Source of the DNA: a virus | Taxonomy: Duplodnaviria; Caudoviricetes | IMG/VR virus record: IMGVR_UViG_3300020109_000001 | Coordinates: 1 to 61,169 of that record | DNA: 61,169 nucleotides | Reading direction: 5' to 3' (one strand) | Part shown: positions 13,233 through 56,918 of the stretch, in pieces | Layout of the letters: each line of letters opens with the position of its first letter | Numbering within the stretch: the first letter of the stretch is position 1 | The notes under the pieces: model-generated | Database searches by the model: none | What the model was told of the DNA's origin: nothing | The model's input: the letters and a program-made list of their open reading frames with translations, nothing else | Program-made: the position numbers and the translations under genes

Positions 13233-13564
13233 TGAAACTTCTCCGGCAGAGTCACAGGTGTCGTTCCGTGTTTCCGGTGGTGTTGGAATAGTAGTGTGAC
13301 CACCTTCAAGACAGCTTCAGGATTCTGAAGCAACAGCACCAAAAGGCTCTTCGCCTGGAGTGTGGCGATTGGATGAATTGGAGCATCATCAAGGTTCTTA
13401 TCACCTTTAACATATTCCAACAGTTCATCCTGATTCGCAGCACGGATATCCTTCGCCCACATCACCAGCTTCTTGGTGACTGGATCAGCAATCTCCATCA
13501 GTAGTTCATCAGCAAGTTGAGTGATAGCTTCACGTGCAGCTTTTTTTCGAGCGTCCATTAGCAC
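13229..13564 (-). CDS. hypothetical protein (about 110 aa)
   Basis: Operon packing. Confidence 0.65.
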   Translation of the reverse strand: MLMDARKKAAREAITQLADELLMEIADPVTKKLVMWAKDIRAANQDELLEYVKGDKNLDDAPIHPIATLQAKSLLVLLLQNPEAVLKVVTLLFQHHRKHGTTPVTLPEKFQ

Positions 13565-13758
13565 ATTCCTTTTTCTTCGGCCAGCCAGACCGGGATTGAA
13601 ATTTGAAAAACTTCGTCGCCGTCAAACTCGAAGATGTCCGAGTCTGTTTCGACCAAGGAGATTGGAAGCCAGACCTCCTTGTCGTCTTCGTTCCGTACAA
13701 GCACAGCATCCTTGCTGCGACGGACGAATTCTACATCACAGGTGAACCATTCGCTCAT
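13558..13758 (-). CDS. hypothetical phage protein (66 aa; WLPIS...IPVWLAEEKG)
   Basis: Common small phage motif; coupled overlaps. Confidence 0.7.
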   Translation of the reverse strand: MSEWFTCDVEFVRRSKDAVLVRNEDDKEVWLPISLVETDSDIFEFDGDEVFQISIPVWLAEEKGMC

Positions 13759-14027
13759 TTCTGCAGTTCTCCAATGTAGTTGGTTTCCTCAATATGTGCC
13801 ACCATATGCATCGGCACAATTCGAACTCGATCAGGAACCAGAACTCCTCGACGTGTCCCTCGTTCATTGGTGTATGTATGCATCAGACGGTAGAACAATC
13901 CATTGACTGTTCCCGTATCAGCAATATCATCCATCAGCGCGTCGTGAGTAAGGTCTTCTCCTGCGAGAATTAACCATTGAGCACCGATACGATTTTCATC
14001 CATCAGGTGCACATTCCAAGCTTTCAT
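13755..14027 (-). CDS. hypothetical protein (90 aa)
   Basis: GGAGGT SD; TG/CA-free leader. Confidence 0.7.
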   Translation of the reverse strand: MKAWNVHLMDENRIGAQWLILAGEDLTHDALMDDIADTGTVNGLFYRLMHTYTNERGTRRGVLVPDRVRIVPMHMVAHIEETNYIGELQK

Positions 14028-14067
14028 ATCCTAACCTCCGATAAGCGTATAAGTAAGCTATAAGGTA

Positions 14068-14096
14068 ACTATAACCCTACAGCGGGTTGGTGACTA
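14068..14096 (-). promoter_or_regulatory. promoter TAGTCA-N17-TATAGT
   Basis: ACTATA at 14068-14073; the -35 overlaps the HNH stop codon; TG/CA-poor island at 14028-14090. Confidence 0.55.
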
Positions 14097-14516
14097 ACTC
14101 TTTTTAATGAAACGACCGTTTCTACCAATTGGTTGTTGTCTTCTCCTATTAGATTCTGCAACAGCTTTTCGAGTCTTATCCGACTGACGCTTACCGTGCA
14201 TTCCTCTGTGCCGACCTTTCTTCACCATATCTTGTGAGTTCTCTTTAGATGTTCCTGCGAAAAGATGCTCAGGGTTAACACAACTTGTATTATCACATGT
14301 GTGACAAGCTTTCTTTCCCGGAGGAAGTGGTCCTTTATATTTCTCATAGAACCAACGATTCGCACGAATCTTAGTTTTGTAACCATTACGAACAGCTGAG
14401 ATCAGTCCATAACCATCCTGATCTTTAGAGCCTTCCCAGGTCCAGCAGCCATTGTCCTCAACAAAGTACGACTGCTCAATTGGAACTAATTGTGTGACCT
14501 GTATATCGTGTTCCAT
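14094..14516 (-). CDS. HNH homing endonuclease (His-Cys type, NUMOD3-like tail)
   Basis: CWTWEG...GYG...[28 protein letters not shown]; GK.QS.KTR. Confidence 0.85.
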
Positions 14517-16503
14517 GTACTTTCTCCCATGCTTCGTCCCATGTTGCACCCCAATTATTTTCTTTATCAGCTTCTGCACTTCCCCATGTATCGCCGAACT
14601 CCATATCCACGACAACAGGAACTTCCAACTTCACAGTGTCACGCATGATCTCATAAGCACGCTGCGCATCTCGAGGATCGTTGAAACTATAATCAAGTTC
14701 GTCGTGCATTTGAAGCATCGGTACAAGGCCCGCTTGATATGAAGCACGCATCGCCAACTTTGTCATACGGGCAGCTGAACCTTGGATCAGTGAGTTCATT
14801 GCCTTGTGGGTCATGGCCCGCTTCAGGCGCTTCTTGTACCACGGGTGGTGCTCATCATGGATACGACTCTGTGCCTCTTCAATCTTCACAGCAGCCAAGA
14901 ACTCTCCGTCTTGGTAGCGAGGTTCCCAGAGTTCGTACCGGGACCGTGCACCATCCAGTAGTCGAATATACCCACGCTGATTTGCAATCCGACTACAGGC
15001 TTCCCCTAGCATCTTCACAAAAGGCATTTCACCATCGTATTGGTCCATGACTGCAGCTGCTTCTTCCAGGGTCATACCTGTCATCAGAGCAAACTTGGCA
15101 ACACCAGCACCGAATGCTTTGGCAAAGTTAACATCCTTGGCCTTCTTCCGTGGAAGCTTCGTCATCTCAGCGACGAGAGTATGGAAGTCGGTCCGTGGAT
15201 CATTCCGATACTTCGCAACTGCCTCAGCTGCACCTGGCAGATTCATGAGATATGCGAAGTGAACAATCAGTCGATATTCTTGTTGCGAGTAATCCAACGC
15301 GCCCCAGATGGTTCCCTTTTCAGGCTGAAAGATCTGACGAATTCGCCTTTTGATTCGAGGATTTCTTGAAGGCATTTGTTGGAGCGGAGGGTCGGAATAG
15401 GCAATTCGTGTGGTGCGTGTCCCTCCGTCATCACTTTTAGTCTGATGGATTTCGGCATGGATTCTTCCCCTGTGAGTGTATCCCTGGATGTAGTTTCCAA
15501 TGAACTTGTTCGAAGCCTCGTTCATCTGCTTTGACTGGACCACTAGATCAGGAAGCCAGTGATCAATCTTTGAGATGACATCAGATTCGAATGACGGGTT
15601 GCCTTTCGCTGTCCGAGGAACAGGAATTCCCTCTGACTCGAACGCTCGCATCAGGAACTGTGGTGAGTTGATGTCACCAATCGTGACTTCACGACCCACA
15701 GCAAGACGCCGGCTGATCTCACCAAGGATGTTGTTCCGATCAACAATGAACTGATGCTTGAGTTCTTCAGCATAAGTTGAGTTGACAGGAATACCAGTGC
15801 GACGCATATCAAGGACCATAGGAACAAGGTCCATCTCAAGTCGATACGCGGCTTCACAACCTTGGTTCACGATCTGAGGATAAAGAAGCTTGGCGGCTTC
15901 TAATGTTGCTACACCATCCTGCTCACCGTATGGTCCAACATACTTGGCTGGCATTCGCCACATGTCTTTCTTCGGATCACATCCATAGGCTTCAGCTGCA
16001 GCCCGAAGCAGATGCTCATCTTTTCCCTTGATCCCGTTCCTCTTACAGGTGTCATCAAGGTTGAATGTCTTCTCATATTCATGGAGCGTGAACTCCATAA
16101 TCATGGTGTCTTCAATATTCCTTGGAAGAGGGAGATCCCAACTTGTAGTGAGCCAGCCAAGGTCGTAGATAGCCCTGTGAAAAACCACTTGGCGATCAGA
16201 AAGGAAGAGTTCACGAAGAAAATCTCGTACTGGCCCTTGGTCCCAGTTCGAGGTCTCGGGATGCCGTATGGGATAATACCATGATCCGCGAGAAGTCGAT
16301 ATGCCAACACCAGCGATCCACCCCAAACCGTAGACCCAACCAGGTCCAATATCGTTTGCCAGTCCATCATCTTTGGTCTCGATGTCTACAGCTACGATTC
16401 TCTCTCCGGTTAGATCCGGAAGAGACCGAGGAACCTCCCAATTCGTTTCAGGAAGGAGGAATCCCATTGGGAGTTGGTCTGGATTTTTCTTCCGCTTGGA
16501 CAT
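14476..16503 (-). CDS. DNA polymerase family A with 3'-5' exonuclease domain
   Basis: VDIET exo I; LDYSQQEYR motif A; R..AK..NF...FG motif B; QMHDEL motif C; IQGSAA. Confidence 0.95.
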
Positions 16504-16742
16504 TCTAGTTCCTCGTTTTCAATCAGGATTACTTCAGAGACCAGATCACCAAGTCTCTTGCTTTTGTGCATGTGAGTTTGACCATTTGCATGGTAAAATG
16601 TATCACCACATTGAAACTCCCATGATTCCCAACCGAACCATGAACTCCTATGTCCTGCCGGTGCGATACGAACCATTGGACCGACAAGATTTCCTTGTCG
16701 GTCCGTGTAGTATGCACCCTCTTTCAAAGAGAGTTCTGACAT
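16410..16742 (-). CDS. hypothetical protein (L..GAYY.DRQG..VGPM...DLVSE)
   Basis: Fills the gap between neighbours; C-terminus overlaps the polymerase start. Confidence 0.55.
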   Translation of the reverse strand: MSELSLKEGAYYTDRQGNLVGPMVRIAPAGHRSSWFGWESWEFQCGDTFYHANGQTHMHKSKRLGDLVSEVILIENEELECPSGRKIQTNSQWDSSFLKRIGRFLGLFRI

Positions 16743-16745
16743 TGA

Positions 16746-17267
16746 TCAAATCTCTGGGGTGGTGTTGATCTTGTGAGGTACGACACCACTTCTCATCTCC
16801 CCGCTGAGCGGCTTATGCTTCGGATGGAGCGGGGGAGAGAGTTCTTTCTCCCAATCAATATATCCAGTGGAATGTGGTGTGCTATTCGGTGTGGTTCGGG
16901 ACTCAATATCTGGGTCTTGGTTCACGTATCCTGGACCAGGCTCCATGCTTGAGATCATCTTCCGATCAGCTGCTGCGAGAATATCTGCTTTCGCCTTGGC
17001 GCGGACCAGAAGCAGATACCCGATCAGGTCATCGATGTCGTCGATGATGTCTCCGTGATTCGTCTTCACCAGTTCGAAGATATCGTAGTGAGCAGAACTC
17101 ACCATATTCTCGATGCGGTCCCACTTCCGAGCCAGCATCATGAAGGCACCTGGACCACCACGCTTCTGCCAGGAACCACCGTATGCTTTCTCCTTCTCAT
17201 GGAGAGTGCTGACGATTCCACCTGCGATGGATTCGAGGTGCTTGAGCCACGGATATTGATCAGTCAT
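16746..17267 (-). CDS. nucleotide modification associated domain 1 (Nmad1, MazG-like all-alpha pyrophosphatase fold)
   Basis: EK.KAYGGSW.KRG..G..MMLARKWDR ... D.I.DL.GY.LL. Confidence 0.75.
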   Translation of the reverse strand: MTDQYPWLKHLESIAGGIVSTLHEKEKAYGGSWQKRGGPGAFMMLARKWDRIENMVSSAHYDIFELVKTNHGDIIDDIDDLIGYLLLVRAKAKADILAAADRKMISSMEPGPGYVNQDPDIESRTTPNSTPHSTGYIDWEKELSPPLHPKHKPLSGEMRSGVVPHKINTTPEI

Positions 17268-17803
17268 TTCTTTCCTCCAAGTTGACGTGCCATTTGAGCA
17301 CGATCGTTAAAGTAATCTGTATTGTATTGAGAGAACATATCCATATTCTTATTCATCAGTACTCGAACAGCTGGAATAATCTTCTCAGCGATTTGCCAAC
17401 CATAGTGAACATTTCCGAGACGCATCTCTTCTATTGCGAACTCAAGCATTTCAATCAGATCAGCGCATTTGATCTTCACAGCTTCTTCAGTTGAGACAAG
17501 TCCGTCATGGTACTTACCAGCGGAAACTTCAAATGCTGTTTCAGAATCAATCCGTTCTGCAACCTGCGCCAGATCAGGATTCGCTCGCTTCGCATCGAAA
17601 GGAATGTCACCTGTACCAAGTTCGCCAGCATCATGGTACACGATTGCCACAGTGACATTCGAAGGTGGTGATCCGAACATCTCGATATAGATACGCAGAA
17701 CGTTGAACGTGTGATGACCCACGTTCTGCTTCTGAACAGTTGGCCAGATATGGTAACGCTGGACGTCACCAATATGTCGAGAACTCAATCCGTTACTCAG
17801 CAT
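17264..17803 (-). CDS. HD-domain nucleotidase (YfbR-like)
   Basis: V.RYH...QNVGHH...YHDAGE..TGDIP...KCAD.IEM. Confidence 0.85.
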   Translation of the reverse strand: MLSNGLSSRHIGDVQRYHIWPTVQKQNVGHHTFNVLRIYIEMFGSPPSNVTVAIVYHDAGELGTGDIPFDAKRANPDLAQVAERIDSETAFEVSAGKYHDGLVSTEEAVKIKCADLIEMLEFAIEEMRLGNVHYGWQIAEKIIPAVRVLMNKNMDMFSQYNTDYFNDRAQMARQLGGKK

Positions 17804-18797
17804 GTTTATTGGTCCACTTTTGGAAACGACGATTGATCCACAGCTGCATAGCTAGTTGCCAGTCTGTGGCTTCGATACAACCCAACCACTCGTAACACTG
17901 TTCCCAGTTCTTCTCCTTGAAAGCCAGATGCGCCATCCAAGCAGGACGAGCCGTCAGATAGAACCACATGTTCTCATAATCGTGAGTATTCACTGGATCC
18001 ATCATGAACTTGTGGAGATCCTGGTCCCACTTGTCAGGATTGGACATAATCGACCAAGGTTCGACTCGACCAGTTCGATAGAAGTTCGTGTCAATCATGC
18101 CATGAATCGCAAACTTGTTTAGCACATCTGTGTAGGCGTGCCAGTTGTTACTCATCTGGTAGAACTTACCTACAGGTACACCAATTCTGCCAGCGAGGTA
18201 TTCCTGTAAGAACGTCATGTGTACCGCGTTGGCACCGTAAGCGCCATAAATCACGTCATTGGATCGAACACAGACGGTGATGTCCAAAGCACCATTCACG
18301 ATACGTGGATAGATGTGTGTGTTGCAGGGGACATCTTTCCACTGCTTCGCACCCAGGTTCTGGAAGTCGACGTACATATCCCACATTGAGATAACGACAC
18401 GTCGATCTTTCGGATCAGCTTTCAGTCTTTCAACTGTTCGATCCAGCTGGTCATAACCCGTCCAATCTCTCCAACGACGACCATAAGCACCATGAATATT
18501 TCCACCCTCTTCACCAAATCGACTTGAAAAGTCTCCCACAAATCGATCCAGCCAGCGACCATCCCGATCACCGTGCAACATCCACAAACACTCGAACAGA
18601 TGGAAGAACGGATTGGCGTCCCTATTCTCATCGAAGAGAACGCGCTCCATGGGTCGATCCGTGACAGTCATAACCGGGAAGGGGACAACCTTCACCTGAC
18701 CAGCCCGCGAATCCTCAATCACTCCATCTCGCTGGACGAAATGGAGTGCCTGAGGATAAAGATCGTTGATGTTGCGCCCACTCAGTACATATGTCAT
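17793..18797 (-). CDS. thymidylate synthase homolog, probable dUMP hydroxymethylase
   Basis: DANPFFH, DRR.VISMWD, DVPCN (catalytic Cys), RSND..YGAYGAN (Asn consistent with dUMP specificity), NNWHAY; modification-cluster context. Confidence 0.85.
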   Translation of the reverse strand: MTYVLSGRNINDLYPQALHFVQRDGVIEDSRAGQVKVVPFPVMTVTDRPMERVLFDENRDANPFFHLFECLWMLHGDRDGRWLDRFVGDFSSRFGEEGGNIHGAYGRRWRDWTGYDQLDRTVERLKADPKDRRVVISMWDMYVDFQNLGAKQWKDVPCNTHIYPRIVNGALDITVCVRSNDVIYGAYGANAVHMTFLQEYLAGRIGVPVGKFYQMSNNWHAYTDVLNKFAIHGMIDTNFYRTGRVEPWSIMSNPDKWDQDLHKFMMDPVNTHDYENMWFYLTARPAWMAHLAFKEKNWEQCYEWLGCIEATDWQLAMQLWINRRFQKWTNKHAE

Positions 18798-19612
18798 GCT
18801 CGGTCTCCTATCTCATACGCCTTCTTCCACTGAACGGTGGCCTCGACACGAGTGCCGAACTCACCACCGCCCTTGTTCTCCTTGACACGTGCGGACACGT
18901 AACCAGGATGCAAATCCATCAGCTTGTACACTGCTTGCTCTTGTAGGTCATGTGTGCGCCAGATCGAGCAACCACCCTCAGTGTTCGTTGCCTTCTGGCC
19001 CGTGGCCCAATAGACAGTTACACAAGTGAGACGCTTCCTGCGGAGGAGTTGTAAGGTGATGTCGAAATCCTCCATAACCGGAACCCGCCCATGTTCCAGT
19101 GAGAGAAACTCATCGACCGAGAAGGCGTTGGCACGCATCCCTCGATAGTGAGGTTGTACTGCTTCGCGACCTCCGAGGCCCAAGCGATTGTTTCCTTCTC
19201 GGGCACCCAAGGAGACTTGCGCATATCCAGAATCCAACAAGCTAATGACGTCATTGTACATGTCGACTGTTTCGTCATCTTCCGTGTACCTCAACTGCCA
19301 ATTGTCGGGTGCTCGACGGACCAGGAAGTTTACATCATCGTCGACCATCAGGATCTTCTTGTATCCACGCTTTCGCGCTTCAACGGCCATCTGCCGGCGC
19401 TTCTCTCCAATGTTCCAATAACCCAACATCATAACGTCATTAACGTGCTCAAGAATCTTCGGATCACGGTAACGCCCACCATCTTCAACGTGCGTGAACA
19501 TAAACGTGTGTTCACGAAGCTTCGGTGACAGACATTTGAGAGTGTCCCGGAATCCTAGCACCTGCTTGTGACGACCCCGAGAAGGAATCGCGATCATCAT
19601 ATCATTCGACAT
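18794..19612 (-). CDS. GT-A fold DNA-base glycosyltransferase (TAGT/GREB1/JGT-like)
   Basis: IAIPSRGR, IG.KR, MVDDD, MEDFD.TLQLL, EGGCS..RT; GAGGAG SD before ATG 19612. Confidence 0.8.
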   Translation of the reverse strand: MSNDMMIAIPSRGRHKQVLGFRDTLKCLSPKLREHTFMFTHVEDGGRYRDPKILEHVNDVMMLGYWNIGEKRRQMAVEARKRGYKKILMVDDDVNFLVRRAPDNWQLRYTEDDETVDMYNDVISLLDSGYAQVSLGAREGNNRLGLGGREAVQPHYRGMRANAFSVDEFLSLEHGRVPVMEDFDITLQLLRRKRLTCVTVYWATGQKATNTEGGCSIWRTHDLQEQAVYKLMDLHPGYVSARVKENKGGGEFGTRVEATVQWKKAYEIGDRA

Positions 19613-20051
19613 TTTCGGACTCCTCAAGTTTCCTGGTGATTCCCTCGAGATATTCATCCCCAGCAGGAACGTCAGTGCTTCCTGGAGCCGGCTCATCTTC
19701 TTTCCCCGGATATGTATCTGGAAACCATCCTAATGATCCATCCTGATCCATATCACCGTGCCAGAACTCGAAATTCGGAACAAGGATGCTCTTCCAATAA
19801 TCAGGATACTGGTTCTGTGGATGCTGTAGAATTAGATTTGGCTCGAATATAAGACCACGGCGAACAATCTCTCGAGCCATACAGTCTCCGATCATCATGA
19901 GATAGACCAGGTATGGCTTCCACTCAGAATCTTCAGCCTCCCCCGCCTGAATGTCTCGATGAAGATCACGAGCGTCACGAAAGTTGTCCAGAACGACGTT
20001 ATCCGGTAAAACCGCTGCACTGATTACAGGGTTTGGGAATGGTAGATACAT
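19602..20051 (-). CDS. divergent endonuclease V / pyrimidine-dimer glycosylase-fold protein, paralog of 9466-9882
   Basis: YLPF.....SA.VL and W..Y...L......MAREIVRRG align to FLPY.....SV.CL and W..H...L......IREWIRRG. Confidence 0.55.
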   Translation of the reverse strand: MYLPFPNPVISAAVLPDNVVLDNFRDARDLHRDIQAGEAEDSEWKPYLVYLMMIGDCMAREIVRRGLIFEPNLILQHPQNQYPDYWKSILVPNFEFWHGDMDQDGSLGWFPDTYPGKEDEPAPGSTDVPAGDEYLEGITRKLEESENVE

Positions 20052-20074
20052 CAGATTTCTCCTTCTCTTAGGGT

Positions 20075-20103
20075 ATTATACCCTGTCAAAAGGGCTGGCG
20101 CTA
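20075..20103 (-). promoter_or_regulatory. promoter TAGCGC-N17-TATAAT for the modification and polymerase operon
   Basis: ATTATA at 20075-20080, GCGCTA at 20098-20103; same -35 as at 28140. Confidence 0.65.
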
Positions 20104-20154
20104 CGGGGATCAGCGGGGAGAAGCGCTCGGTCGAAGTGTTTCATGGGGATGCTC

Positions 20155-20313
20155 CTAACCGAACAGAAAAATAATGAACGAGCCTGACGCAGCGACGAAC
20201 ATGGTAAAGATCACTGCGGACAACACAGAGGCAAGTTCGCTCGATCTGAACATTTTTACCCGATCCTTCAGCGGGATACGTTCGAGATAGATGCGCTTAC
20301 GGGGTGGGGTCAT
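20155..20313 (-). CDS. small membrane protein (52 aa, MTPPRKRIYL...), not in the ORF track
   Basis: Hand translation; TAAGGAG SD; C-terminal hydrophobic helix. Confidence 0.55.
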   Translation of the reverse strand: MTPPRKRIYLERIPLKDRVKMFRSSELASVLSAVIFTMFVAASGSFIIFLFG

Positions 20314-20334
20314 GTGGTTGCTCCTTAGAGGTGC

Positions 20335-20583
20335 TTAGATTTGTTTCTCGTCACCGTCAAGATATCGCTTGAAGTCGATCGTCCAAGGATATTCCTTCTG
20401 CATGTTCTTGAACTGTTCAGCAGTACCAACCCATGCATAGTTGCGGTCAGTTGTTTCGCCAAGGCAACTGTAATTGACGTATGTCCTGCTCTCAGCATTC
20501 CAGGCGATGTATTTCCTACCACCTGGAAATCGAGACTGAACAGCCCATTCGTTGTATTCCCTTTTCTTCTTCAGAGGTTTCAT
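20335..20583 (-). CDS. hypothetical protein (82 aa)
   Basis: ATGA overlap with the kinase gene. Confidence 0.65.
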   Translation of the reverse strand: MKPLKKKREYNEWAVQSRFPGGRKYIAWNAESRTYVNYSCLGETTDRNYAWVGTAEQFKNMQKEYPWTIDFKRYLDGDEKQI

Positions 20584-21527
20584 CGATACGTTCCTCGTGG
20601 CCTTCCTTCACCATTGTTTGCTCGCTGGTACTTGTCGAACTCGCATAGCGAGTGCTCGATCTCTCGCATCTCTAATGGACGCTCGGGCCAAGGCCAATTT
20701 TCAGTTGGTCTCGACATAACTCGAAGATCAAACATTTCTTTATTCCACTCTTCCTTCTTCTGAGTGAAATTCAGCTTCCGACCATGAAGTCTGTTTAGAC
20801 CACGCATCGCACCGGGTCCAGCATTGGCCCAGGTCATGATATCGGGAGCACGCTCCAAGGCCCGAGTGAAGCGGAGGTCGGTCACAACCTCATAGGCCAT
20901 GAAATCACCCAGGTAGCTGAACTTGCGAAGCCAGTCCCAGGCGTCTTGGAGAGTGACCGTGCAATTTGTATCAAACATGATTTCTGCACCTCCTCTCCAA
21001 CTGACATTGTCGATGAGGACACAATCACGTTCTACATTGTGTCGCGTGTATCGAAGTGGGTACTTATCCCTCCAGAAATGCTCCAAGGCCCAACACACAC
21101 CGTGCAGTTTTGTCATTCCGCTCGGAGTCTTGATGATGTAGGCACCTGTGACGAAGGGACCATGAGGACCAATATGCTTGAGCAAAGCATCCTTGATGAT
21201 CTGCCCATCACCAGACTTTCGGAACTCTTCATATGGATTATCTCCAACATAAAGATCATCGGTGTTGAACAATGCTTCACCACTCACAGTCCGATTGAAC
21301 CAACGGAACAGAACCGTCGCCAGAATGATGTCTTCTCGATTCCGGAGCGGATCACGAACATTCTCTCGGAACCACACAGTCGTGCGATCATCTTCACGAA
21401 ACACGTTCGTGAATTTGTAATAGTCGAGAATCTCATCCTTGGTCCAAGGACGAGGCTCCCCGGCCTGCTTCTTCAGGAAGATGCGGTAGCGTTCCTGGAT
21501 GAAATTGAAGAAGGGTGTGGGATCCAT
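20580..21527 (-). CDS. 5-hydroxymethyl-dU DNA kinase (aGPT-Pplase1 family)
   Basis: F...ER..I..KK.AG.P.PWT.D.IL..YKFTNVFREDDR, FRWFN, FMAYE.VTDL, GPGA.RGL, REIEHSLCEFDKY.R. Confidence 0.9.
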   Translation of the reverse strand: MDPTPFFNFIQERYRIFLKKQAGEPRPWTKDEILDYYKFTNVFREDDRTTVWFRENVRDPLRNREDIILATVLFRWFNRTVSGEALFNTDDLYVGDNPYEEFRKSGDGQIIKDALLKHIGPHGPFVTGAYIIKTPSGMTKLHGVCWALEHFWRDKYPLRYTRHNVERDCVLIDNVSWRGGAEIMFDTNCTVTLQDAWDWLRKFSYLGDFMAYEVVTDLRFTRALERAPDIMTWANAGPGAMRGLNRLHGRKLNFTQKKEEWNKEMFDLRVMSRPTENWPWPERPLEMREIEHSLCEFDKYQRANNGEGRPRGTYR

Positions 21528-21530
21528 GAT

Positions 21531-21914
21531 TCAATCCTTCCTCTCAATGCTGAAAGACCAACGCCAGTCTTGTTCCATCATCTCAGCAACTCTTTCACCA
21601 ATCTTACTTCCAAACTCACCAGCTTGAATTGCTGCAACAACCTTCGCCTTGACAGCAGCATTATGCTCGACCATGTACTCTCGCACAGCTTCCCGAGCCG
21701 CATTGCGAAGTTCATGACCGACCAACCAATCAAGATATGAAACTTCTTTGACACCATACTCATGCGAAGTCTTCGGATGACCTGTGTTTTCACTTACAGG
21801 TTTGTTGAAGGCTGCAGCAATCAACTTCTCAACCATTTCAGGTGTTGTGTTGAATGCTTCGATCACCTTCGCCTGGATTGTTGTCTTCAAGAGTGCTTCG
21901 ATTTGTTGGTCCAT
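21531..21914 (-). CDS. hypothetical protein (127 aa)
   Basis: GGAG SD and promoter upstream. Confidence 0.75.
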   Translation of the reverse strand: MDQQIEALLKTTIQAKVIEAFNTTPEMVEKLIAAAFNKPVSENTGHPKTSHEYGVKEVSYLDWLVGHELRNAAREAVREYMVEHNAAVKAKVVAAIQAGEFGSKIGERVAEMMEQDWRWSFSIERKD

Positions 21915-22098: not shown

Positions 22099-22854
22099 TC
22101 AGGCAGGGTTCTTGATCGCGATGAAGTTCTTCTGGACGTCGAACTCCAGGTCACCACGAGTCAGGCCGGCAGCAATGGCCTGTTCGACAGTCATGCCATT
22201 GGTGTAGAGCGCGAACCGCTCAGCCGATTTCGAACCAGCACGCTTCGGATTGTTCTCGGCGCCATAGGGATTGCCATCCTTGTCGGCGAGCAGCGTGATG
22301 ATCGACTCGTTCTTGTACTTGGGCTCACGGACCGGAGGCTTGCGCTTCGTGGTACCTTTTTCGGTGGTCGCTTCCGAAGCAGGAGCAGCATCGCTCACGA
22401 TTTGACCAGCATTGGTCTCGGTGGTCGCAGCAGCTTCGGTGTTCTTCGGGTCTTTAGCCATCTTTCTGGTCTCCAGGTTTGGTGCGAGACGATCTCGCTT
22501 GATGATTTCAAAAATGGTTTCTGCCTCAGTGGGTAGAGGTTTGCACTTATCGAGCATCTTTTGCCAAAGAAGCCCGCGATAGCGATCCATGGTGAGGATC
22601 CAGTTGTCCCATCCTTTAGATTTGAAGTCTACAAGAATCTCCGAACGTTCAACTGGATCAACCAGAACTGACAACAACCAGGGAAATTCTCGACGAGTCC
22701 AATTCCTCTCGATGAAATCTGGGCCTTCACAGATCACATCCCCGTACTGGATAAGAGGGTGGGTATATGCTGACTTCCAATCAGGAAACCACCAGAAATC
22801 ACCTTCCCCATTCCGGGTAACTGCAACAACTCCCTTTTCCGCCGCTTCAACCAT
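22099..22854 (-). CDS. hypothetical protein with C-terminal NPKR.GS...RFALY..GMTV domain (paralog family of 3)
   Basis: NPKRAGSKSAERFALYTNGMTVEQAIAAGLTRGDLEFDVQKNFI. Confidence 0.8.
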   Translation of the reverse strand: MVEAAEKGVVAVTRNGEGDFWWFPDWKSAYTHPLIQYGDVICEGPDFIERNWTRREFPWLLSVLVDPVERSEILVDFKSKGWDNWILTMDRYRGLLWQKMLDKCKPLPTEAETIFEIIKRDRLAPNLETRKMAKDPKNTEAAATTETNAGQIVSDAAPASEATTEKGTTKRKPPVREPKYKNESIITLLADKDGNPYGAENNPKRAGSKSAERFALYTNGMTVEQAIAAGLTRGDLEFDVQKNFIAIKNPA

Positions 22855-22917: not shown

Positions 22918-24417
22918 TTATAGGTCATAGTGGAGAACATCACTCGGCTTCACCAGAGTGAGTTTTTGACGAGTCCGAGTCACTCCAACATACCATACAC
23001 GAGCCTCGTCTTCAGGGTTACTTTGCATCTCTTGATGTGTTCGTTTCGCCATATCTGGAATAAGAATCACATGGTCGGCCTCGCCACCTTTTGAACCATG
23101 GATTGTAGACAGTCGAATGTTCGATTTCCCAAGCGTCTCGCCACGCTGGATCACCGCACGAATGTAATTCAATTCTTCCCTCGGAATACGATCTAGAGCA
23201 TCGAACCAAGGTTTGTCAGTCAACAATCCAGCATTCTTCTTCAGCCACGCGAGGTCGACTTGGAGATCATCAGGATGTCCAGGAATCTTTTTATATCCTC
23301 TTCTAACACCTTTGCCACTCGACATTTGTTCGTAAAGGAATCGAGCATCGTCGACGGATATTTCCTTGCCTCTTCGAAGGTCCTCCCATCTTCTAACCGC
23401 ACCGATAACCGCAGGCTTAATAGATGGTGATGATCGTAAATCGAACTGGTGACCTTCCCTTCGAAGATGCGCAGCGAGATTTCTGAGAGAGAAGACATTC
23501 CGGGCCAATACAAGTATGTCAGTGCCGGAATAATCGATGTCATAGATCGAACTTGCTCGCTCCAGTATTCCTTGTCCTTCTTTAGGTCTCCATTCCTTAT
23601 CACGACGATGCTTAACTTTGCCAATGAGTTCATTCGAAATCTCCTGTATCTCAGCTGGCACCCGCCATGATTGACCCAGAACTCGTGTGTTCCCCCGCAT
23701 GTCCACGAAATGTTCAACAGCTGCACCAGCCCAACGATAAATGGCCTGATCATCGTCTCCGGCCACAACGACACGGGAGGAGCGGGAGGCGAGTTTCTCG
23801 ACAACTCTCCACTGCAGCAGACTCAAGTCTTGTGCTTCGTCTACGATGAGAACTTCAAGCTGTGGTGCCCAGTCCCCATCTGCAAACATTGACAGCATGT
23901 CTGTGTAGTCGTAGAGATTCTTGGCTCGCTTGAACTTTTCCAGACCACGAGCCACACGGTCCACGAACGTCCAAGGAAGACCATCGTGATACTGATCATA
24001 CAGCTGGCGAAGTGGAACACACATCACCCGAGCCATGTTCTCCATATGAAGTGCACGGTCCCCTTCGGTAAACCCAAAGAGTGTTGAGTCATCCATCTTT
24101 AGAGACTGACTCAATCGTATTCCGAGCCAGTCTCCAAATTCCAGCAGCTTCTTGCCTTCAAACACATCAGCATTACTCAAGCCAAGTGTGTGAAAGCACA
24201 TCGAATGTAGTGTCCGGAAGAATGGTAGATCTGTCTTTTGTAGATTGAACTTCTTGACGGCTCGATCTATTGCTTCATTCGCAGCTTTCTTCGTGAATGA
24301 GAAGAACCCAATTCTGTCGGGTGGAGTTCCGATTGAGAGTTCTTCGTCAACAATATTAAGAAGTGATGTAGTTTTTCCACAACCTGGAGGACCGAGAATA
24401 ATTTCAGGTTCCAACAT
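22918..24417 (-). CDS. UvrD/Rep-family SF1 DNA helicase
   Basis: GPPGCGKTT, FTKKAA, VDEAQD, GDDDQAIY, TIHGSKGGE, YVGVTR; start ATG 24417. Confidence 0.95.
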   Translation of the reverse strand: MLEPEIILGPPGCGKTTSLLNIVDEELSIGTPPDRIGFFSFTKKAANEAIDRAVKKFNLQKTDLPFFRTLHSMCFHTLGLSNADVFEGKKLLEFGDWLGIRLSQSLKMDDSTLFGFTEGDRALHMENMARVMCVPLRQLYDQYHDGLPWTFVDRVARGLEKFKRAKNLYDYTDMLSMFADGDWAPQLEVLIVDEAQDLSLLQWRVVEKLASRSSRVVVAGDDDQAIYRWAGAAVEHFVDMRGNTRVLGQSWRVPAEIQEISNELIGKVKHRRDKEWRPKEGQGILERASSIYDIDYSGTDILVLARNVFSLRNLAAHLRREGHQFDLRSSPSIKPAVIGAVRRWEDLRRGKEISVDDARFLYEQMSSGKGVRRGYKKIPGHPDDLQVDLAWLKKNAGLLTDKPWFDALDRIPREELNYIRAVIQRGETLGKSNIRLSTIHGSKGGEADHVILIPDMAKRTHQEMQSNPEDEARVWYVGVTRTRQKLTLVKPSDVLHYDL

Positions 24418-24778
24418 AAAGATCTCTCCTAGTTGCTGCCTGCTCCATATAGTGACTATTCTGAACATTCACTGACTGTGTAACTACTCGTATATTCTTC
24501 CAGCGATTGTCATCTCTTATTCTATTTTCGTGATCGACAACTAATTCTGGTGGGGGATATTCACCAGTCATATAGAAAACTGCAAGTCGTGACACATACC
24601 AATTCTCTCGAAACAAACAAATAGCTCGATGTCCATCAGCTTGTTTCCATCCAGCCTCTTCTCCAGCTTTACATCGCCCTCTACTTTCTCTCCAAGTCAT
24701 TATCCCAGTTATAGGATCATAATGGATCAGTTTAATCAACTGAGCATGTGTGAATGTTGGAACTTTTGCATGTATCAT
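24404..24778 (-). CDS. HNH homing endonuclease
   Basis: YDP.TG...W...G..AG ... RLA.FY.TG..P...VDHENR.RDDNRW.NIR.VT.S.N..N; AT-richer than flanks. Confidence 0.85.
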   Translation of the reverse strand: MIHAKVPTFTHAQLIKLIHYDPITGIMTWRESRGRCKAGEEAGWKQADGHRAICLFRENWYVSRLAVFYMTGEYPPPELVVDHENRIRDDNRWKNIRVVTQSVNVQNSHYMEQAATRRDLYVGT

Positions 24779-53907: not shown

Positions 53908-55014
53908 TTACTGCGGGGTTTTCCAGGCGTCCGCGAGTTCTTTCTCGCGGGCATGATACCCGAAGGAATCATTCACCTGGGTCGGGTTGCTCTGACGATC
54001 GAGAACGGTCGACATCACATTGTCACCCAGTTGGGTTTTCTTCTGGGCTTCCTTGGCCTGCTTCAGAGCAATATCGAACATGGCTTCGATATAGGCTTCG
54101 CCCTTGTCAGCATACTCAGCATCGACAGTCACAACAGCTTTCTTGCGGACATCAGCATCGGACAGACCCTTGAAGTCAGCCTTGGGTGCGATCAGAGCCG
54201 CGTCAGCCAGCAGCTGGGCACGCTTGGCCACACGTTCATCCAGCTGTGCGTCGTTCAGCTGAGCAGCTTCCAGTTCCTTGATGCGAGCATCCTTCGTCGC
54301 GAGTTCCTTGTCTTTCGCGTCGATAGCAGCTTGGGCGCGATCTTGAATATTCTTGATGTGACCAGTGATCTTGTCCGCATCAGTGGCGATAACCTCTGCG
54401 GTCGAATCGCCGATCGCAATATGCTTCGTGGTCATCTTGACCTCCTTTTCTATCGGGGCAGCACCCCATTCGTCGCCGATCTGGCAATTCCCCGCACGTC
54501 CGTTGGGGACGACCGCGAGATGGTTGATGCGAATATTGGTCTGCTTCGCATCGTAGTCTTGTCCATCAGATGTAACACCAGGAGTTGCATCCAACACACA
54601 AGTGTAACCAGCAGACAACTGCCGGGTACCACTTTGAATGGCGGCAACCGCCGCAGCATCCTTGATCACGAGAGGCAACTTGATTCGGTTACCATCCCAC
54701 ATCGCCTCGGTTGAGACTTCCCCGACAGCCAGCTTGTTCCAGTTATCAGCTGTCACAGCTTCTTTGGGGTGTCCCATGGTCACAGGTGCGTGGCTGAAAG
54801 TCGTGAGACTGTCAGGAGCACGAACCTCATCCTCAGGACGATAGACCCGGACGATGGCCTTGTCGCGAAGACCCAGAGTTCCATCCGGATCAACTTCTTT
54901 GCCAGTGTACAGTTGGACGCCAGTACGGACTGCAAAAGCTTCCGTCACCATGTATCCATCTGAAGTGATGCGAGTGCCACTCAGCGTGACACTGTCGCGA
55001 AGGGGCACAGTCAT
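53908..55014 (-). CDS. DUF2213 prohead protease / scaffold
   Basis: RTGVQ.Y, YRP.DEV....SL.TF...PVT.GHP, LSAGY, Q.NI.INHLAVV..GRAG. Confidence 0.9.
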   Translation of the reverse strand: MTVPLRDSVTLSGTRITSDGYMVTEAFAVRTGVQLYTGKEVDPDGTLGLRDKAIVRVYRPEDEVRAPDSLTTFSHAPVTMGHPKEAVTADNWNKLAVGEVSTEAMWDGNRIKLPLVIKDAAAVAAIQSGTRQLSAGYTCVLDATPGVTSDGQDYDAKQTNIRINHLAVVPNGRAGNCQIGDEWGAAPIEKEVKMTTKHIAIGDSTAEVIATDADKITGHIKNIQDRAQAAIDAKDKELATKDARIKELEAAQLNDAQLDERVAKRAQLLADAALIAPKADFKGLSDADVRKKAVVTVDAEYADKGEAYIEAMFDIALKQAKEAQKKTQLGDNVMSTVLDRQSNPTQVNDSFGYHAREKELADAWKTPQ

Positions 55015-56918
55015 GTCGCATCCTTTTTGATTGTCTCGAAGACTTCTGGACCAAGAACAATCTTACCAGTGTATGGCTCGATGTCGTCAAGATTCAGACC
55101 GTCAACAGACTTCGACAGAGAGATATGTGGCTTGTAGTCTGGGTAAGACGACGAAGCACCACGATCAATCATATCTTCGTGACGATACTTCAGTTGGTAG
55201 CTGTTGAACCGAAGAACGAGTGTCTCATCGTCAGGAGGACCAAAGATGTCGAGCATCCGAGCACCACCAGGACGAATCTCGAGGTTCCCGTTCCGCCAGT
55301 CACCCGCCCAGTCATCTTCCATACTCATCCAGTCAACAGGTGTCTCACTGTAGAGGATGGTAACATGCAAGTCGTCGGCTGGGAACAGGTCTTGGATTCC
55401 CTGCTTCTTGGCCCAATCGAGAATGGATTTCGCATTCACGACCTTGCGACTCACATAGAGAGGCATGGGACCTCTCTCGTCGTTGACTGCTTTCTTGCGG
55501 GATGCGGGGGGCGAGTTCTCGTTCGCAGCACCACCAGGCTTGGGTTCAGGCTTCAATGCTGCTTTGACAACATCGATAGCTTCACCAGGTTCATTCCGAA
55601 CCTTCTGATGCATCTCCCAAGCATCTTCAAGACCAGGCATGGCTTCGTGCTCGACGATGGTGTTAACGACAGCCGCACCCATCGAGTAGGGGTCGATCAT
55701 GCCGTTCTTGATCATCGTCTCGCCGACCTTCGCAGCATTCAGAGCAATCTCTGCACGCTCCTTCTCGGTCACCTGCCACAATGGGCGCCAGGTATAGAAG
55801 ATCTCTTTCGGACGACGACCCAGAGCGGAGCGGATCACCGCCTCGTCGTAGTTCTTCATCGCCGGAGTGATCTTATTATTCTGCATCGACTGAACACGAT
55901 CATAGTAATGGCGGATATCCGCCTCACCTGTTGCGTTCAGACCACCAGGGCTGGTTCCGAAGAGTCGAGTAACAGGAATGCTGCACGACCCAGAAACATA
56001 CTGGTAGAAGCGGTCGATGAGTTCAGGAAGAGAACCATAGGTCTGGCTCTTCTGTTGGTACTGTTCCAGTTCATCCAGGATGAGCGTACCGTTGACGCTT
56101 TTCGACATGCTCGCCATGGCGAATCGCTTCAGAAGGTCAGCCTCATATCCCGGCTGCTGAGCCAGCTTGGTCATCAGACCCTTGACGTTGATTACGTCAA
56201 TCTTCGCTTCAAAGATCAGGTTGGCGATTGCCGTGATGGCTCCGTCAACATGTTTAGTGGCGTTCAACACAACCTGTAGAACCGAACGTGACCATTGCGT
56301 GTTCACGCGCGGCATATCAAGCGGTCGTTCATCACCCTTGAAGATCATCAGACGAGTGTGGTGAATCTTGACGTCACCGCCATCAGCTTTCTTGTACAGA
56401 TAGTACACAGGCTTGCCGAAGTTCTCGCTGTCCAGGTTCTCATCGAGATCACCCTGAGTCAGTTGAAGCTGACTGAAGACGATACAACGACGAAGATCGC
56501 CTTTCCCGATGGTCTTCGCATCAAATGGGGTGTCGGGCTTTTGGCCACGGATTGGGAAATAGACTGCAGCGCCTCCGAGCAGGCGTCCATTCTTCAACCC
56601 AGTCTCTACTGCTTGTAGAACACCCGTGCGAGATTCTTCGGCTTCGATGGCGGTGATCTGGTCGGGAGGAGCGTTCCAGTTCCGCCAGCGACGAGTCGCA
56701 TCTTCAGCGATGGTATCTACGATTCGGCGTGGGAGGAACGCCGTTTCATAGGCAGCAAGCAACTCAGCATCAGTGTAAGTGCGTGACATGTACACGCCAG
56801 CTGATGCTTTGTCTCTACCACCACCAAAGCCTGCGACTACATTGCCGTAGCCATCCCACATTTCAAGTACTTGACCGTCCGCTGTGACACGCGCACGACC
56901 ACGAGGCTTCTCTGTCAT
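55011..56918 (-). CDS. portal protein (DUF1073) fused to a C-terminal Acb1-like 2H phosphodiesterase
   Basis: IVD..AEDATR.W, IH.TR...F.G, IPVTRLFG.SP.GLNATGE.D...YYD; C-terminal LHVTILYS...YKPHISL...LGPEVF. Confidence 0.85.
   Translation of the reverse strand: MTEKPRGRARVTADGQVLEMWDGYGNVVAGFGGGRDKASAGVYMSRTYTDAELLAAYETAFLPRRIVDTIAEDATRRWRNWNAPPDQITAIEAEESRTGVLQAVETGLKNGRLLGGAAVYFPIRGQKPDTPFDAKTIGKGDLRRCIVFSQLQLTQGDLDENLDSENFGKPVYYLYKKADGGDVKIHHTRLMIFKGDERPLDMPRVNTQWSRSVLQVVLNATKHVDGAITAIANLIFEAKIDVINVKGLMTKLAQQPGYEADLLKRFAMASMSKSVNGTLILDELEQYQQKSQTYGSLPELIDRFYQYVSGSCSIPVTRLFGTSPGGLNATGEADIRHYYDRVQSMQNNKITPAMKNYDEAVIRSALGRRPKEIFYTWRPLWQVTEKERAEIALNAAKVGETMIKNGMIDPYSMGAAVVNTIVEHEAMPGLEDAWEMHQKVRNEPGEAIDVVKAALKPEPKPGGAANENSPPASRKKAVNDERGPMPLYVSRKVVNAKSILDWAKKQGIQDLFPADDLHVTILYSETPVDWMSMEDDWAGDWRNGNLEIRPGGARMLDIFGPPDDETLVLRFNSYQLKYRHEDMIDRGASSSYPDYKPHISLSKSVDGLNLDDIEPYTGKIVLGPEVFETIKKDAT

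Follow-up and report, generated by a model that had tools for sequence, protein, structure and literature searches.

A putative kinase-independent thymidine modification operon with a DNA-type glycosyltransferase in a complete phage genome

Which modified thymidine could a phage make when its genome pairs a dUMP hydroxymethylase-like gene with a glycosyltransferase and a PF18723 gene? The window, the whole 61,169-nucleotide stretch analysed, comes from IMG/VR; this virus record carries direct terminal repeats and CheckV estimates it at 100%, which bears out the earlier judgement that this 61 kb genome is complete. A sequence-only reading had described a thymidine hypermodification cluster with a 5hmdU-DNA kinase and a glycosyltransferase but no amino acid:DNA transferase; a 5-hmdU cluster with a DNA-type glycosyltransferase is retained here, and the kinase is not. 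The modification genes form one tightly packed array on the minus strand, where all five ORFs named in that reading were found in place. The array and its borders are as follows.

14476..16503, minus strand: family A DNA polymerase (Pfam DNA_pol_A, E 8.6e-44), syntenic in relatives; downstream end of the array
16410..16742, minus strand: 110-aa ORF between the 173-aa and polymerase genes; no Pfam or PHROG family
16746..17267, minus strand: 173-aa protein, conserved between hydroxymethylase and polymerase in relatives
17264..17803, minus strand: HD-domain phosphohydrolase (YfbR-like; Pfam E 9.8e-11; PHROGs 6047, 7076 and 318), homologue of PaMx11 gp52
17793..18797, minus strand: thymidylate-synthase homologue with dUMP hydroxymethylase signature (Thymidylat_synt E 4.2e-21; phrog_5131 E 1.4e-98)
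18794..19612, minus strand: TAGT-family GT-A glycosyltransferase, likely start ATG 19612, 272 aa
19602..20051, minus strand: 149-aa orphan ORF directly upstream of the glycosyltransferase; no Pfam or PHROG family
20335..20583, minus strand: 82-aa ORF overlapping the PF18723 gene end by 4 nt; phrog_18048 E 1.4e-7, no Pfam family
20580..21527, minus strand: PF18723 protein, 315 aa (Pfam "HMUDK_hel", formerly aGPT-Pplase1, aGPT-Pplase clade 1)
21531..21914, minus strand: 127-aa ORF upstream of the PF18723 gene
22099..22854, minus strand: 251-aa conserved protein, C-terminus like PhiJL001 gp18 (tblastn E 6e-8); borders the array upstream, with relatives between the UvrD-like helicase and PF18723 genes in many loci
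22918..24468, minus strand: UvrD-like helicase (Pfam UvrD-helicase, E 2.6e-28 in a scan of 21 ORFs), conserved syntenic upstream neighbour

The thymidylate-synthase homologue is 40% identical to PaMx11 gp51 and 42% identical to PhiJL001 gp24. By the criteria given in the available part of PMC13326640, Asn at the ThyA N177 position denotes dUMP, Asp at L143 admits water, and Asp at D169 marks an enzyme that is not a hydroxylase. The window protein carries Asn at N177 and Asp both at D169 and three residues ahead of the catalytic Cys, and is thus predicted not to be a hydroxylase; since HMMER opens a 5-residue gap at L143, that equivalence was taken from the spacing to the catalytic Cys. The same residue pattern occurs in 75-76 of 76 motif-readable relatives, PaMx11 gp51 included, with Asn in 76/76. 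The family assignments made earlier for this gene, the HD gene, the TAGT-type glycosyltransferase and the aGPT-Pplase1 gene are all upheld by Pfam matches. The label "Nmad1" for the 173-aa protein is not, as it matches no Pfam family even at E <= 10; ESM Atlas feature scores of 0.91-0.93 to viral clusters, some with DUF1599, offer a lead toward an Nmad1/DUF1599-like protein, and tblastn relatives (30-56% identity) occur in most of the 85 loci.

The supposed kinase is the aGPT-Pplase1 gene itself. Its product matches PF18723 strongly (E 3.4e-47; 161.6 bits against a Pfam cut-off of 25) and aligns with PaMx11 gp50 (tblastn, 40% identity, E 2e-70), whereas the P-loop protein gp49 is the characterised 5-hmdU DNA kinase of PaMx11 (PMC8989533 Table 1). 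The aGPT-Pplase1 product lacks a Walker A motif and P-loop, and its predicted model resembles helix-hairpin-helix (HhH) glycosylases and the amino acid:DNA transferase PUGT, not kinases. On sequence and predicted structure, then, the PF18723 protein is a non-kinase. A search of the rest of the genome gave a similar picture. PaMx11 gp49 found no homologue by tblastn against the whole genome (best E 0.17), PF18748 had no matches at E <= 10, and AAA_33 and APH had none at E <= 1 in searches whose controls were positive in 14/14 and 13/14 genomes; in the positive control PaMx11 both ADDT and AAA_33 were detected. A Walker A expression matched seven times in the genome: two matches fall in the two helicases, one in the tape measure protein and the other four in stop-to-stop frames just 14-58 aa long. 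The UvrD-like helicase, whose motif lies at 24370-24393, is among just two real genes to carry it in canonical form. A Pfam scan of 86 ORFs returned no kinase family. The place of the PaMx11 kinase is taken by the 127-aa ORF, which lacks a Walker A motif, matches no family with a credible E-value and has no tblastn relatives among 85 loci.

With no kinase of the tested kinds in a complete genome, phospho-hmU and sugar-phosphate-hmU, both listed earlier as candidate final bases, lose their basis. That the PF18723 protein is nevertheless a 5-hmdU DNA kinase, giving 5-phosphomethyl-dU as the final base or, with the glycosyltransferase, a sugar-phosphate adduct, is highly improbable and is contradicted by the sequence, although Pfam now names the family "5-hmdU DNA kinase, helical domain" and the available part of PMC5889632 (Table 3) shows the domain fused to a kinase in SP10 gp186. 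Two relatives, L007 and L021, do carry a gp49-like P-loop kinase plus TAGT genes and no ADDT, so a pathway using both enzymes may exist elsewhere.

The absence of an amino acid:DNA transferase was confirmed by a six-frame genome search (PF18724, no matches at E <= 1). PLP, radical SAM, FAD and acetyltransferase families are likewise missing from the 86 ORFs scanned, and Radical_SAM from the six frames, so these profile searches, proposed with the earlier reading, exposed no transferase among the hypotheticals and agree with its statement that tailoring enzymes are lacking. It had also suggested the product of a small ORF at 19602, 20335 or 21531. Their small size (149, 82 and 127 aa) and poor conservation (at most one tblastn match each in 85 loci) rule these out as a hidden transferase: the 82-aa ORF has a single relative, at the same position in L010, and the 149-aa ORF has one weak relative, in L047, and a poor Atlas model (pLDDT 0.45) that names no family. 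Of the 47 ORFs in the genome's first 33 kb, 35 lack a family when no more than one is counted for each ORF, and an enzyme of unknown fold may therefore be encoded.

The glycosyltransferase, ORF 18794-19696, matches TAGT at E 9.9e-16 (58.7 bits, where the cut-off is 27.5); ATG 19612 is preceded at 7 nt by GAGGAG, and relatives begin at the equivalent residue. The DxD motif D119-D120-D121 is invariant in 19 sequences, and the AF2 model (pLDDT 88.3) gave 167 PDB matches at E <= 0.001 in Foldseek, GT-A enzymes throughout among the matches listed. Characterised TAGT enzymes act on 5hmC, according to the available part of bioRxiv 10.1101/2023.12.21.572611, and action on 5hmU is inferred from context only. 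The same portion of that preprint reports that about 65% of glycosyltransferase-containing viral contigs have no neighbouring base-modification enzyme, which implies that phage GT-A enzymes are not all DNA enzymes, and it frames ThyS-linked glycosyltransferases as cytosine pathways. The virion DNA might accordingly hold plain 5-hydroxymethyluracil, as in SPO1 and SP8, with a glycosyltransferase that is inactive or does not act on DNA, or the synthase homologue might act on dCMP and the sugar be placed on a cytosine derivative. We consider this quite unlikely: the match to a DNA-specific family exceeds the Pfam cut-off, the glycosyltransferase and hydroxymethylase genes overlap by 4 nt, their pairing recurs in proteobacterial and actinobacterial phages, the base-specificity residue is Asn rather than Asp in all motif-readable relatives, and the closest characterised relative comes from PaMx11, whose DNA contains a 5hmdU-derived base (PMC8989533).

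The layout recurs among relatives. Among 47 related viral records chosen through PF18723, TAGT is present in 16 and ADDT in 3, never together, and a gp49-like kinase is absent within 10 kb in 14 of the 16 TAGT records. The cultured phages PhiJL001 and LuckyBarnes have the same kinase-less layout, the latter with TS, GT, GT and a PF18723-like gp38 in a row, and in the close relatives L010, L022 and L047 the TAGT-bearing cassette includes an NAD-dependent sugar epimerase/dehydratase.

In 31 of 80 loci PF18723 lies right beside the hydroxymethylase (gap <= 50 nt) without an intervening modification cassette, and tblastn (E <= 1e-4) detects no GT, kinase or ADDT across the whole locus (+/-10 kb), which marks PF18723 as a core partner of hmU synthesis. 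By its model and weak sequence similarity the protein would be a paralogue of the amino acid:DNA transferases, and its most probable ligand is a flipped-out 5-substituted uracil in DNA. It could also be a kinase-independent enzyme on 5hmdU in DNA, adding a group or turning leftover 5hmdU into thymine, to give an undescribed base or mixture with or joined to the sugar. This seems unlikely, if less so than a silent glycosyltransferase or a cytosine product. Besides the abutting loci, it is favoured by 45 invariant columns among 50 sequences, by a family commoner than ADDT (at least 4271 against at least 951 proteins at E <= 0.001, both counts candidate-limited), by a weak local profile alignment of E291-H292-x-x-C295 on the PUGT metal ligands E243/T244 and base clamp C247 (PMC11472151), and by a sub-threshold ADDT match on the C-terminal half of PhiJL001 gp19. 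In the available part of PMC5889632, SPO1 retains plain 5hmdU and is without the family, and PhiW-14 and SP10 turn the 5hmdU of their DNA in situ into thymidine or the hypermodified base, with no enzyme named there for the thymidine branch. Against it, a hydroxyl leaves poorly unless activated, the support from hhalign is weak (probability 0.57%, E 0.1), no counterpart of the PUGT donor-binding residues W146 and K150 is seen by eye in the HhH hairpin (consensus compared), and N-alpha-GlyT formation in lysates did not require M6 gp55 (PMC8989533 section 16), which we take as that phage's PF18723 member by analogy with SN1 (PMC9476957). The literature consulted on these clusters held no published activity for the family.

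Taken together, a kinase-independent thymidine modification operon working in three parts is the reading we hold to be somewhat probable. Before replication, as family signatures suggest, the thymidylate-synthase homologue would turn dUMP into 5-hydroxymethyl-dUMP while the HD hydrolase and 173-aa protein keep down the competing thymidine nucleotides; 5hmdUTP would be supplied by host kinases, and the phage family A polymerase would place 5hmdU in DNA instead of T. After replication, the GT-A enzyme, presumably translationally coupled to the hydroxymethylase, would move a sugar from a nucleotide sugar to the 5-CH2OH. The third part would be the non-kinase PF18723 protein, in relatives a conserved core alongside the hydroxymethylase. 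The most likely product, predicted from the gene content and among the options first listed, is directly glycosylated 5-hydroxymethyluracil, 5-(glycosyloxymethyl)uracil, a phage counterpart of base J; the sources available to our literature search report no glycosylated 5hmdU nucleoside from phage. If the PF18723 protein itself modifies bases, the DNA may end up with something other than a simple glycoside.

The closest known systems are the Pseudomonas phages PaMx11 (gp46-gp53) and M6 (gp51-gp55) of the Mesyanzhinovviridae, which share with the window, in the same order, a backbone of PF18723, TS-like dUMP hydroxymethylase, HD hydrolase, small conserved protein and family A polymerase (PMC8989533; PMC5889632), PaMx11 gp50 and gp51 each being 40% identical to their counterparts. 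The PaMx11 cassette upstream of gp50 (AADT gp46, FAD lyase gp47, acetyltransferase gp48 and P-loop kinase gp49) is wholly missing from the window, which instead has the TAGT glycosyltransferase between the PF18723 and hydroxymethylase genes. The Alphaproteobacteria phage PhiJL001 (AY576273, Keylargovirus; gp19-gp28) has the same triad, with gp19 (PF18723), gp22 (glycosyltransferase) and gp24 (hydroxymethylase) 41%, 37% and 42% identical to the window proteins, followed by an HD protein, a DUF3310 protein and the polymerase, and has no kinase or ADDT above threshold; its Nmad5 gene (gp23, between GT and TS) and dCMP deaminase gene were not found in the window. A literature search found no report of its DNA composition.

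Base J of kinetoplastids is made by the JBP1/2 dioxygenase and the JGT glucosyltransferase. The predicted product is alike in bearing a sugar placed on the hydroxymethyl of 5hmU in DNA by a GT-A enzyme, but here 5hmU would be made before replication, at the nucleotide level by a TS homologue, whereas base J starts from T oxidised within DNA; no TET/JBP family occurs among the 86 ORFs scanned. Phage GT-A DNA glycosyltransferases are structurally like JGT, according to the available part of bioRxiv 10.1101/2023.12.21.572611. PUGT/AADT (aGPT-Pplase2, PF18724; PDB 8z2n, PaMx11 gp46) is about 9% identical to the PF18723 protein, which the Pfam ADDT model does not match and in which the glycine-binding pair W146 and K150 has no evident counterpart, and the window phage cannot make its phosphorylated substrate. 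TET- and ThyS-associated phage DNA glycosyltransferases share the Pfam TAGT family and GT-A fold (PMC8256090; bioRxiv 10.1101/2023.12.21.572611, as far as available); that preprint's available text divides GT-A enzymes about evenly between 5mYOX and ThyS neighbourhoods and makes no mention of a link with PF18723. The characterised members glycosylate 5hmC and the ThyS-linked ones are treated there as cytosine pathways, whereas the ThyS homologue of the window has the uracil-specific Asn.

The genes at issue form one minus-strand array at 14.5-24.5 kb of the window, co-directional and tightly packed. In array order they are:

22918-24468, minus strand: UvrD-like helicase, the first gene
22099-22854, minus strand: ORF for a 251-aa conserved protein
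21531-21914, minus strand: 127-aa ORF
20580-21527, minus strand: 315-aa PF18723 'HMUDK_hel' protein (Pfam E 3.4e-47)
20335-20583, minus strand: 82-aa ORF, overlapping the 315-aa (PF18723) gene by 4 nt
19602-20051, minus strand: 149-aa ORF
18794-19696 as listed, likely 18794-19612, minus strand: TAGT glycosyltransferase (Pfam TAGT E 9.9e-16)
17793-18797, minus strand: thymidylate-synthase (TS) homologue (Pfam Thymidylat_synt E 4.2e-21), overlapping the glycosyltransferase gene by 4 nt
17264-17803, minus strand: YfbR-like HD protein (Pfam E 9.8e-11)
16746-17267, minus strand: 173-aa protein, Nmad1/DUF1599-like as a lead only
16410-16742, minus strand: 110-aa ORF
14476-16503, minus strand: family A DNA polymerase, the last gene

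Pfam matches at these places bear out the TS, HD, glycosyltransferase and PF18723 families named in the sequence-only reading; four of the ten ORFs scanned carried a family, and the other six gave no Pfam match. PHROGs agreed with Pfam (phrog_5131, E 1.4e-98; phrog_842, E 1.9e-29; phrog_2396, E 3e-66, a PHROG without an assigned function), and an Atlas search with the 149-aa ORF returned nothing usable. The genome is complete, as had been supposed: CheckV puts it at 100%, and it has direct terminal repeats. No tRNA genes were found in its 61,169 bp, and megablast against 50,697 phage records gave no near relative of the cluster.

The protein at 20580-21527 had been read as an 'aGPT-Pplase1 kinase', a label that conflates two distinct proteins, the window protein being the homologue of PaMx11 gp50 and not of gp49. 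The 5-hmdU DNA kinases are P-loop kinases (M6 gp54, PaMx11 gp49, ViI gp67/gp243, PhiW-14 gp37 and SP10 gp186; Lee et al., PMC8989533 Table 1), and the aGPT-Pplases are listed apart from them as DNA-glycosylase-like helix-hairpin-helix (HhH) proteins (PMC8989533); the available text of the SN1 genome note likewise has one gene for 'aGPT-Pplase1' and another for 'nucleotide kinase' (PMC9476957). The PaMx11 genes run gp46 (amino acid:DNA transferase, AADT; ADDT or PF18724 in searches), gp47 (FAD), gp48 (acetyltransferase), gp49 (kinase), gp50 (hypothetical), gp51 (TS) and gp52 (HD). With gp50, which Pfam assigns to PF18723 (E 5.6e-41), the window protein shares 40% identity (E 2e-70); gp49 falls in AAA_33, Zeta_toxin and, weakly, PF18748 'HMUDK_HMUD1'. 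By tblastn the best match of the window to gp49 reaches only E 0.17, and that to gp46 only E 0.46. The window protein scores 161.6 bits against a PF18723 gathering threshold of 25, spanning profile positions 7-276 of 281. It has a helix-hairpin-helix DNA-glycosylase-like fold, and its model finds its best structural matches among HhH glycosylase-type proteins and not among P-loop NTPases. Lacking a Walker A motif ([GA]x4GK[STG] is absent from 20580-21527), similarity to gp49 and a P-loop model, it was rejected as a member of the 5-HMUDK P-loop kinases. Under the family's Pfam name, '5-hmdU DNA kinase, helical domain', stand-alone members are easily mistaken for kinases. The name appears to derive from SP10 gp186, in which, according to the available text of PMC5889632 (Table 3), a kinase (gp186N) is fused to a PF18723-type domain (gp186C). 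The gene under the PF18723 match is annotated 'terminase small subunit' in PAKlein3 and 'pyrophosphorylase' in Sonora.

The supposed first step of the pathway, the kinase, is missing from the genome too. Six-frame searches of the whole genome gave no match to ADDT/PF18724 at E <= 1, none to AAA_33, Radical_SAM or APH at E <= 1, and none to PF18748 at E <= 10. Control searches with AAA_33, Radical_SAM and APH were positive in 14, 14 and 13 of 14 genomes, respectively, and the same searches of PaMx11 recovered its AADT (E 3.3e-29) and, through AAA_33, its kinase (E 4.9e-7). PF18748 detects such kinases poorly, giving no more than 18 bits even to PaMx11 gp49, and at the level of whole records the profile missed gp49-like kinases that tblastn finds in L007, L011, L021 (viral loci of relatives, +/-10 kb, from IMG/VR) and others. 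The kinase search in the window therefore rests on tblastn, AAA_33, APH and a six-frame Walker A scan, whose seven matches lie in helicases (two), in the 2101-aa tape measure ORF (one) and in stop-to-stop frames of 14-58 aa (four). By Pfam, 76 further ORFs hold only replication, structural and lysis families and Acb1, with no PLP, FAD, acetyltransferase or amidoligase family among them; no TET/JBP family was seen among the 86 ORFs scanned. The claim that the AADT and the tailoring enzymes are absent holds, because the six-frame PF18724 and Radical_SAM searches and the Pfam ORF scans were null while the PaMx11 control was positive. As a separate observation, a 635-aa structural-region ORF (55011-56918, minus strand) ends at its C-terminus with the Acb1 anti-CBASS domain of ~150 residues (PF23474, E 7.1e-39, 55017-55460), which is a fused form and not a stand-alone Acb1.

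The residues by which a dUMP hydroxymethylase may be recognised are set out, in E. coli ThyA numbering, in the available text of PMC13326640: Asn at N177 denotes uracil, not cytosine; water is admitted when the residue at L143 is acidic; and Asp is kept at D169, where Asn marks the 5-hydroxylases. The window TS homologue reads D-V-P-C ... R-S-N-D ... G-A-N. Its Asn aligns with the N of the TS motif 'PFN' (the N177 position), Asp is retained at the D169 position, and a further Asp lies three residues before the catalytic Cys, a site (Cys-3) equated with L143 across a 5-residue alignment gap. Judged by these residues, the protein carries the dUMP hydroxymethylase signature in all three respects. 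The motif is readable in 76 of 78 tblastn relatives, PaMx11 gp51 among them, with Asp at Cys-3 in 75/76, Asp at D169 in 76/76 and Asn at N177 in 76/76. The 'Nmad1' (DUF1599, PF07659) assignment of the 173-aa protein at 16746-17267 could not be sustained beyond an Atlas lead; no Pfam family matches it at E <= 10, and DUF1599 occurs in 11-100% of the members of its nearest Atlas clusters, all of them 'under the bar'.

For the glycosyltransferase, the ATG at 19612 is the likeliest start: GAGGAG precedes it by 7 nt, and relatives start at the corresponding residue. The assignment of the enzyme to the TAGT family (PF20691) draws on a score of 58.7 bits against the Pfam threshold of 27.5, on a GT-A fold in the predicted model (pLDDT 88.3) and on a DxD motif, D119-D120-D121, that is invariant together with 15 other columns across 19 sequences. 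Foldseek returned 167 PDB matches at E <= 0.001, and those listed are all GT-A enzymes, for example the LH3 GT domain, AvpGT and TarP. It is the gene context from which we infer that sugar is transferred to a 5-hydroxymethylpyrimidine in DNA. A complex prediction for the PF18723 protein and the glycosyltransferase scored 0.00 against a mark of 0.32, which is evidence neither way. Of the readings of this array, the best supported, to which we give a somewhat better than even chance, has 5hmdU synthesised before replication and then glycosylated directly, and a base-J-like nucleoside would arise with no phosphorylated intermediate. The sequence-only reading stands in part: its observation was right on the missing AADT and tailoring enzymes and wrong on the kinase label, and its interpretation is partly supported.

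This layout recurs in relatives. In phage records, tblastn with the glycosyltransferase found only four, namely PhiJL001, LuckyBarnes (two records) and one uncultured phage. PhiJL001 (Keylargovirus, Mesyanzhinovviridae) has gp19 (PF18723), gp20, gp21, gp22 (glycosyltransferase), gp23 (Nmad5), gp24 (TS), gp25 (HD), gp26 (DUF3310), gp27 and gp28 (polymerase); like the window it has no kinase, and its sole ADDT signal is a sub-threshold match inside gp19. Actinophage LuckyBarnes carries TS, two glycosyltransferases and gp38, a PF18723 relative at 26% identity (E 9e-20), in one row. In IMG/VR the PF18723 alignment picked up 574 pattern matches, of which 567 were confirmed relatives, and the best 80 of the 567 were taken as loci (51 clusters at 90% identity). 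Across these +/-10 kb loci tblastn reveals a shared backbone of UvrD, the 251-aa protein, PF18723, a variable cassette, TS, HD, an Nmad1-like or DUF3310 protein and polymerase, with the TS gene downstream of PF18723 in 74/80. Without dereplication, the 74 divide into 13 loci with a glycosyltransferase only, two with a glycosyltransferase and a gp49-like kinase (L007, L021), three with kinase and AADT, seven with kinase only and 49 with none of these. In 31 of the 80, 'minimal' loci (L012, L013, L015-L020, L023, L026, L028, L029, L031-L035, L037-L043, L045, L046, L048, L049, L054, L071 and L085), TS follows PF18723 within 50 nt, tblastn finds no glycosyltransferase, kinase or ADDT in +/-10 kb, and the order is PF18723, TS homologue, Nmad1-like gene, polymerase gene. 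Among 50 whole records, 47 obtained via PF18723 and selected for length and three via the glycosyltransferase, TAGT occurs in 18 (16 of the 47) and ADDT in three, and no record of the 50 has both.

The cassettes of the relatives hold TAGT, epimerase/dehydratase, radical SAM/SPASM, FkbM-type methyltransferase, UDG-like, Pyr_excise-like and dCTP-deaminase/dUTPase-like proteins. Two loci, L007 (11262-13500) and L021 (11037-13386), place a gp49-like P-loop kinase (30-32% identity) and one or two TAGT genes beside PF18723 without an AADT, which is the kinase-plus-sugar layout once imagined for the window. An NAD-dependent epimerase/dehydratase lies in the TAGT cassettes of L010 (12464-13507; Pfam Epimerase E 7.5e-35), L022 and L047, directly upstream of TAGT in L010, and suggests tailoring of the donor sugar; L010 and L047 are among the closest relatives of the window, from which this gene is absent. 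An FkbM-type methyltransferase (E 1.1e-11) sits between PF18723 and TS in L052, L055, L065, L066 and L070 (e.g., L066:7699-8475, L052:11750-13087), cassettes that also encode a 445-aa protein resembling Glycos_transf_1 weakly (E 2e-4, short of the Pfam cut-off). A radical SAM/SPASM protein occurs in the cassettes of eight loci (L003, L007, L014, L056, L057, L060, L061 at 13530-14690, and L068), some of which also carry TAGT or kinase, without AADT. A divergent PF18723 paralogue or subtype, 26-30% identical to that of the window, adjoins TAGT in L008 (15048-16786), L003 (10001-11933), L004 (8009-9692) and L087 (6178-8640); L008 has two PF18723 copies, one core-type and one abutting the glycosyltransferase.

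PF18723 is a highly conserved and numerous family. Among 50 sequences sharing 46-78% identity with the query, 45 columns are invariant, and at E <= 0.001 the database holds 4271 PF18723 proteins against 951 of the AADT family, both counts being candidate-limited. A sequence link between the two families is suggestive, not established: profile against single sequence and profile against profile both reach only E 0.1. The weak local hhalign match (E 0.1, 40 columns) sets E291-H292-S-L-C295 on E243-T244-I-L-C247 of PUGT, the AADT of PaMx11 (gp46). The crystal structure of PUGT with DNA shows a metal, bound by E243 and T244, in contact with O4 of the flipped base, which is clamped by C247 and W146 (PMC11472151). 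By eye, a 'DPI[LY]' motif is common to both families (D31 against PUGT D24, a donor contact as K150 is), and the glycine-binding W146 and K150 of PUGT have no PF18723 counterpart. The motif LCE[FW]DKY is retained in 11/11 aligned PF18723 members; Q and N take the places of E291 and H292 in LuckyBarnes gp38, which was aligned separately, and in those proteins of L003 and L004 that abut a glycosyltransferase. A PDB sequence search with the PF18723 profile returned ketol-acid reductoisomerase at E 0.086 or weaker, which is chance level. PF18723 probably binds a flipped 5-substituted uracil in DNA, with a co-substrate other than that of the AADTs, or none.

Three observations leave room for a catalytic role of this family, as an idea and not a result. 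By analogy with SN1, M6 gp55 is taken to be the PF18723 member of M6, and gp55 is dispensable for N-alpha-GlyT formation in lysates (PMC8989533). According to the available text of PMC5889632, SPO1, whose DNA contains plain 5hmdU, lacks the PF18723 family, and in PhiW-14 and SP10 the 5hmdU in DNA has two fates, becoming thymidine or the hypermodified base; that text names no enzyme for the thymidine branch. It is conceivable, though we consider it improbable, that PF18723 is a kinase-independent enzyme acting directly on 5hmU in DNA, either converting 5hmdU to thymine or adding some other group, and that as the core of a very large phage thymine-replacement family it acts beside the glycosyltransferase to give an undescribed base or base pattern.

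To our knowledge, all characterised thymidine hypermodification pathways proceed via a DNA kinase and an amino acid:DNA transferase. What this cluster and its numerous relatives suggest is a simpler route that needs no kinase and puts sugar straight onto hydroxymethyluracil. Viral contigs are already known to pair GT-A enzymes with ThyS homologues; the available text of bioRxiv 10.1101/2023.12.21.572611 presents this general association in terms of cytosine pathways, and the same gene set is also present in phage genome AY576273. Supplementary tables aside, the literature searched yielded neither a phage nucleoside in which 5hmdU is glycosylated nor an activity for PF18723, an abundant and highly conserved protein that is tied to the hydroxymethylase rather than to a kinase and whose database name invites the wrong functional call. 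PhiJL001 and LuckyBarnes are in culture and have the same set of genes, which makes the chemistry directly testable. In the base J pathway (JBP and JGT) a TET/JBP dioxygenase makes 5hmU in DNA, whereas the window has a TS-type hydroxymethylase instead; if the kinase-free sugar route is true, it would be the phages' own version of base J.
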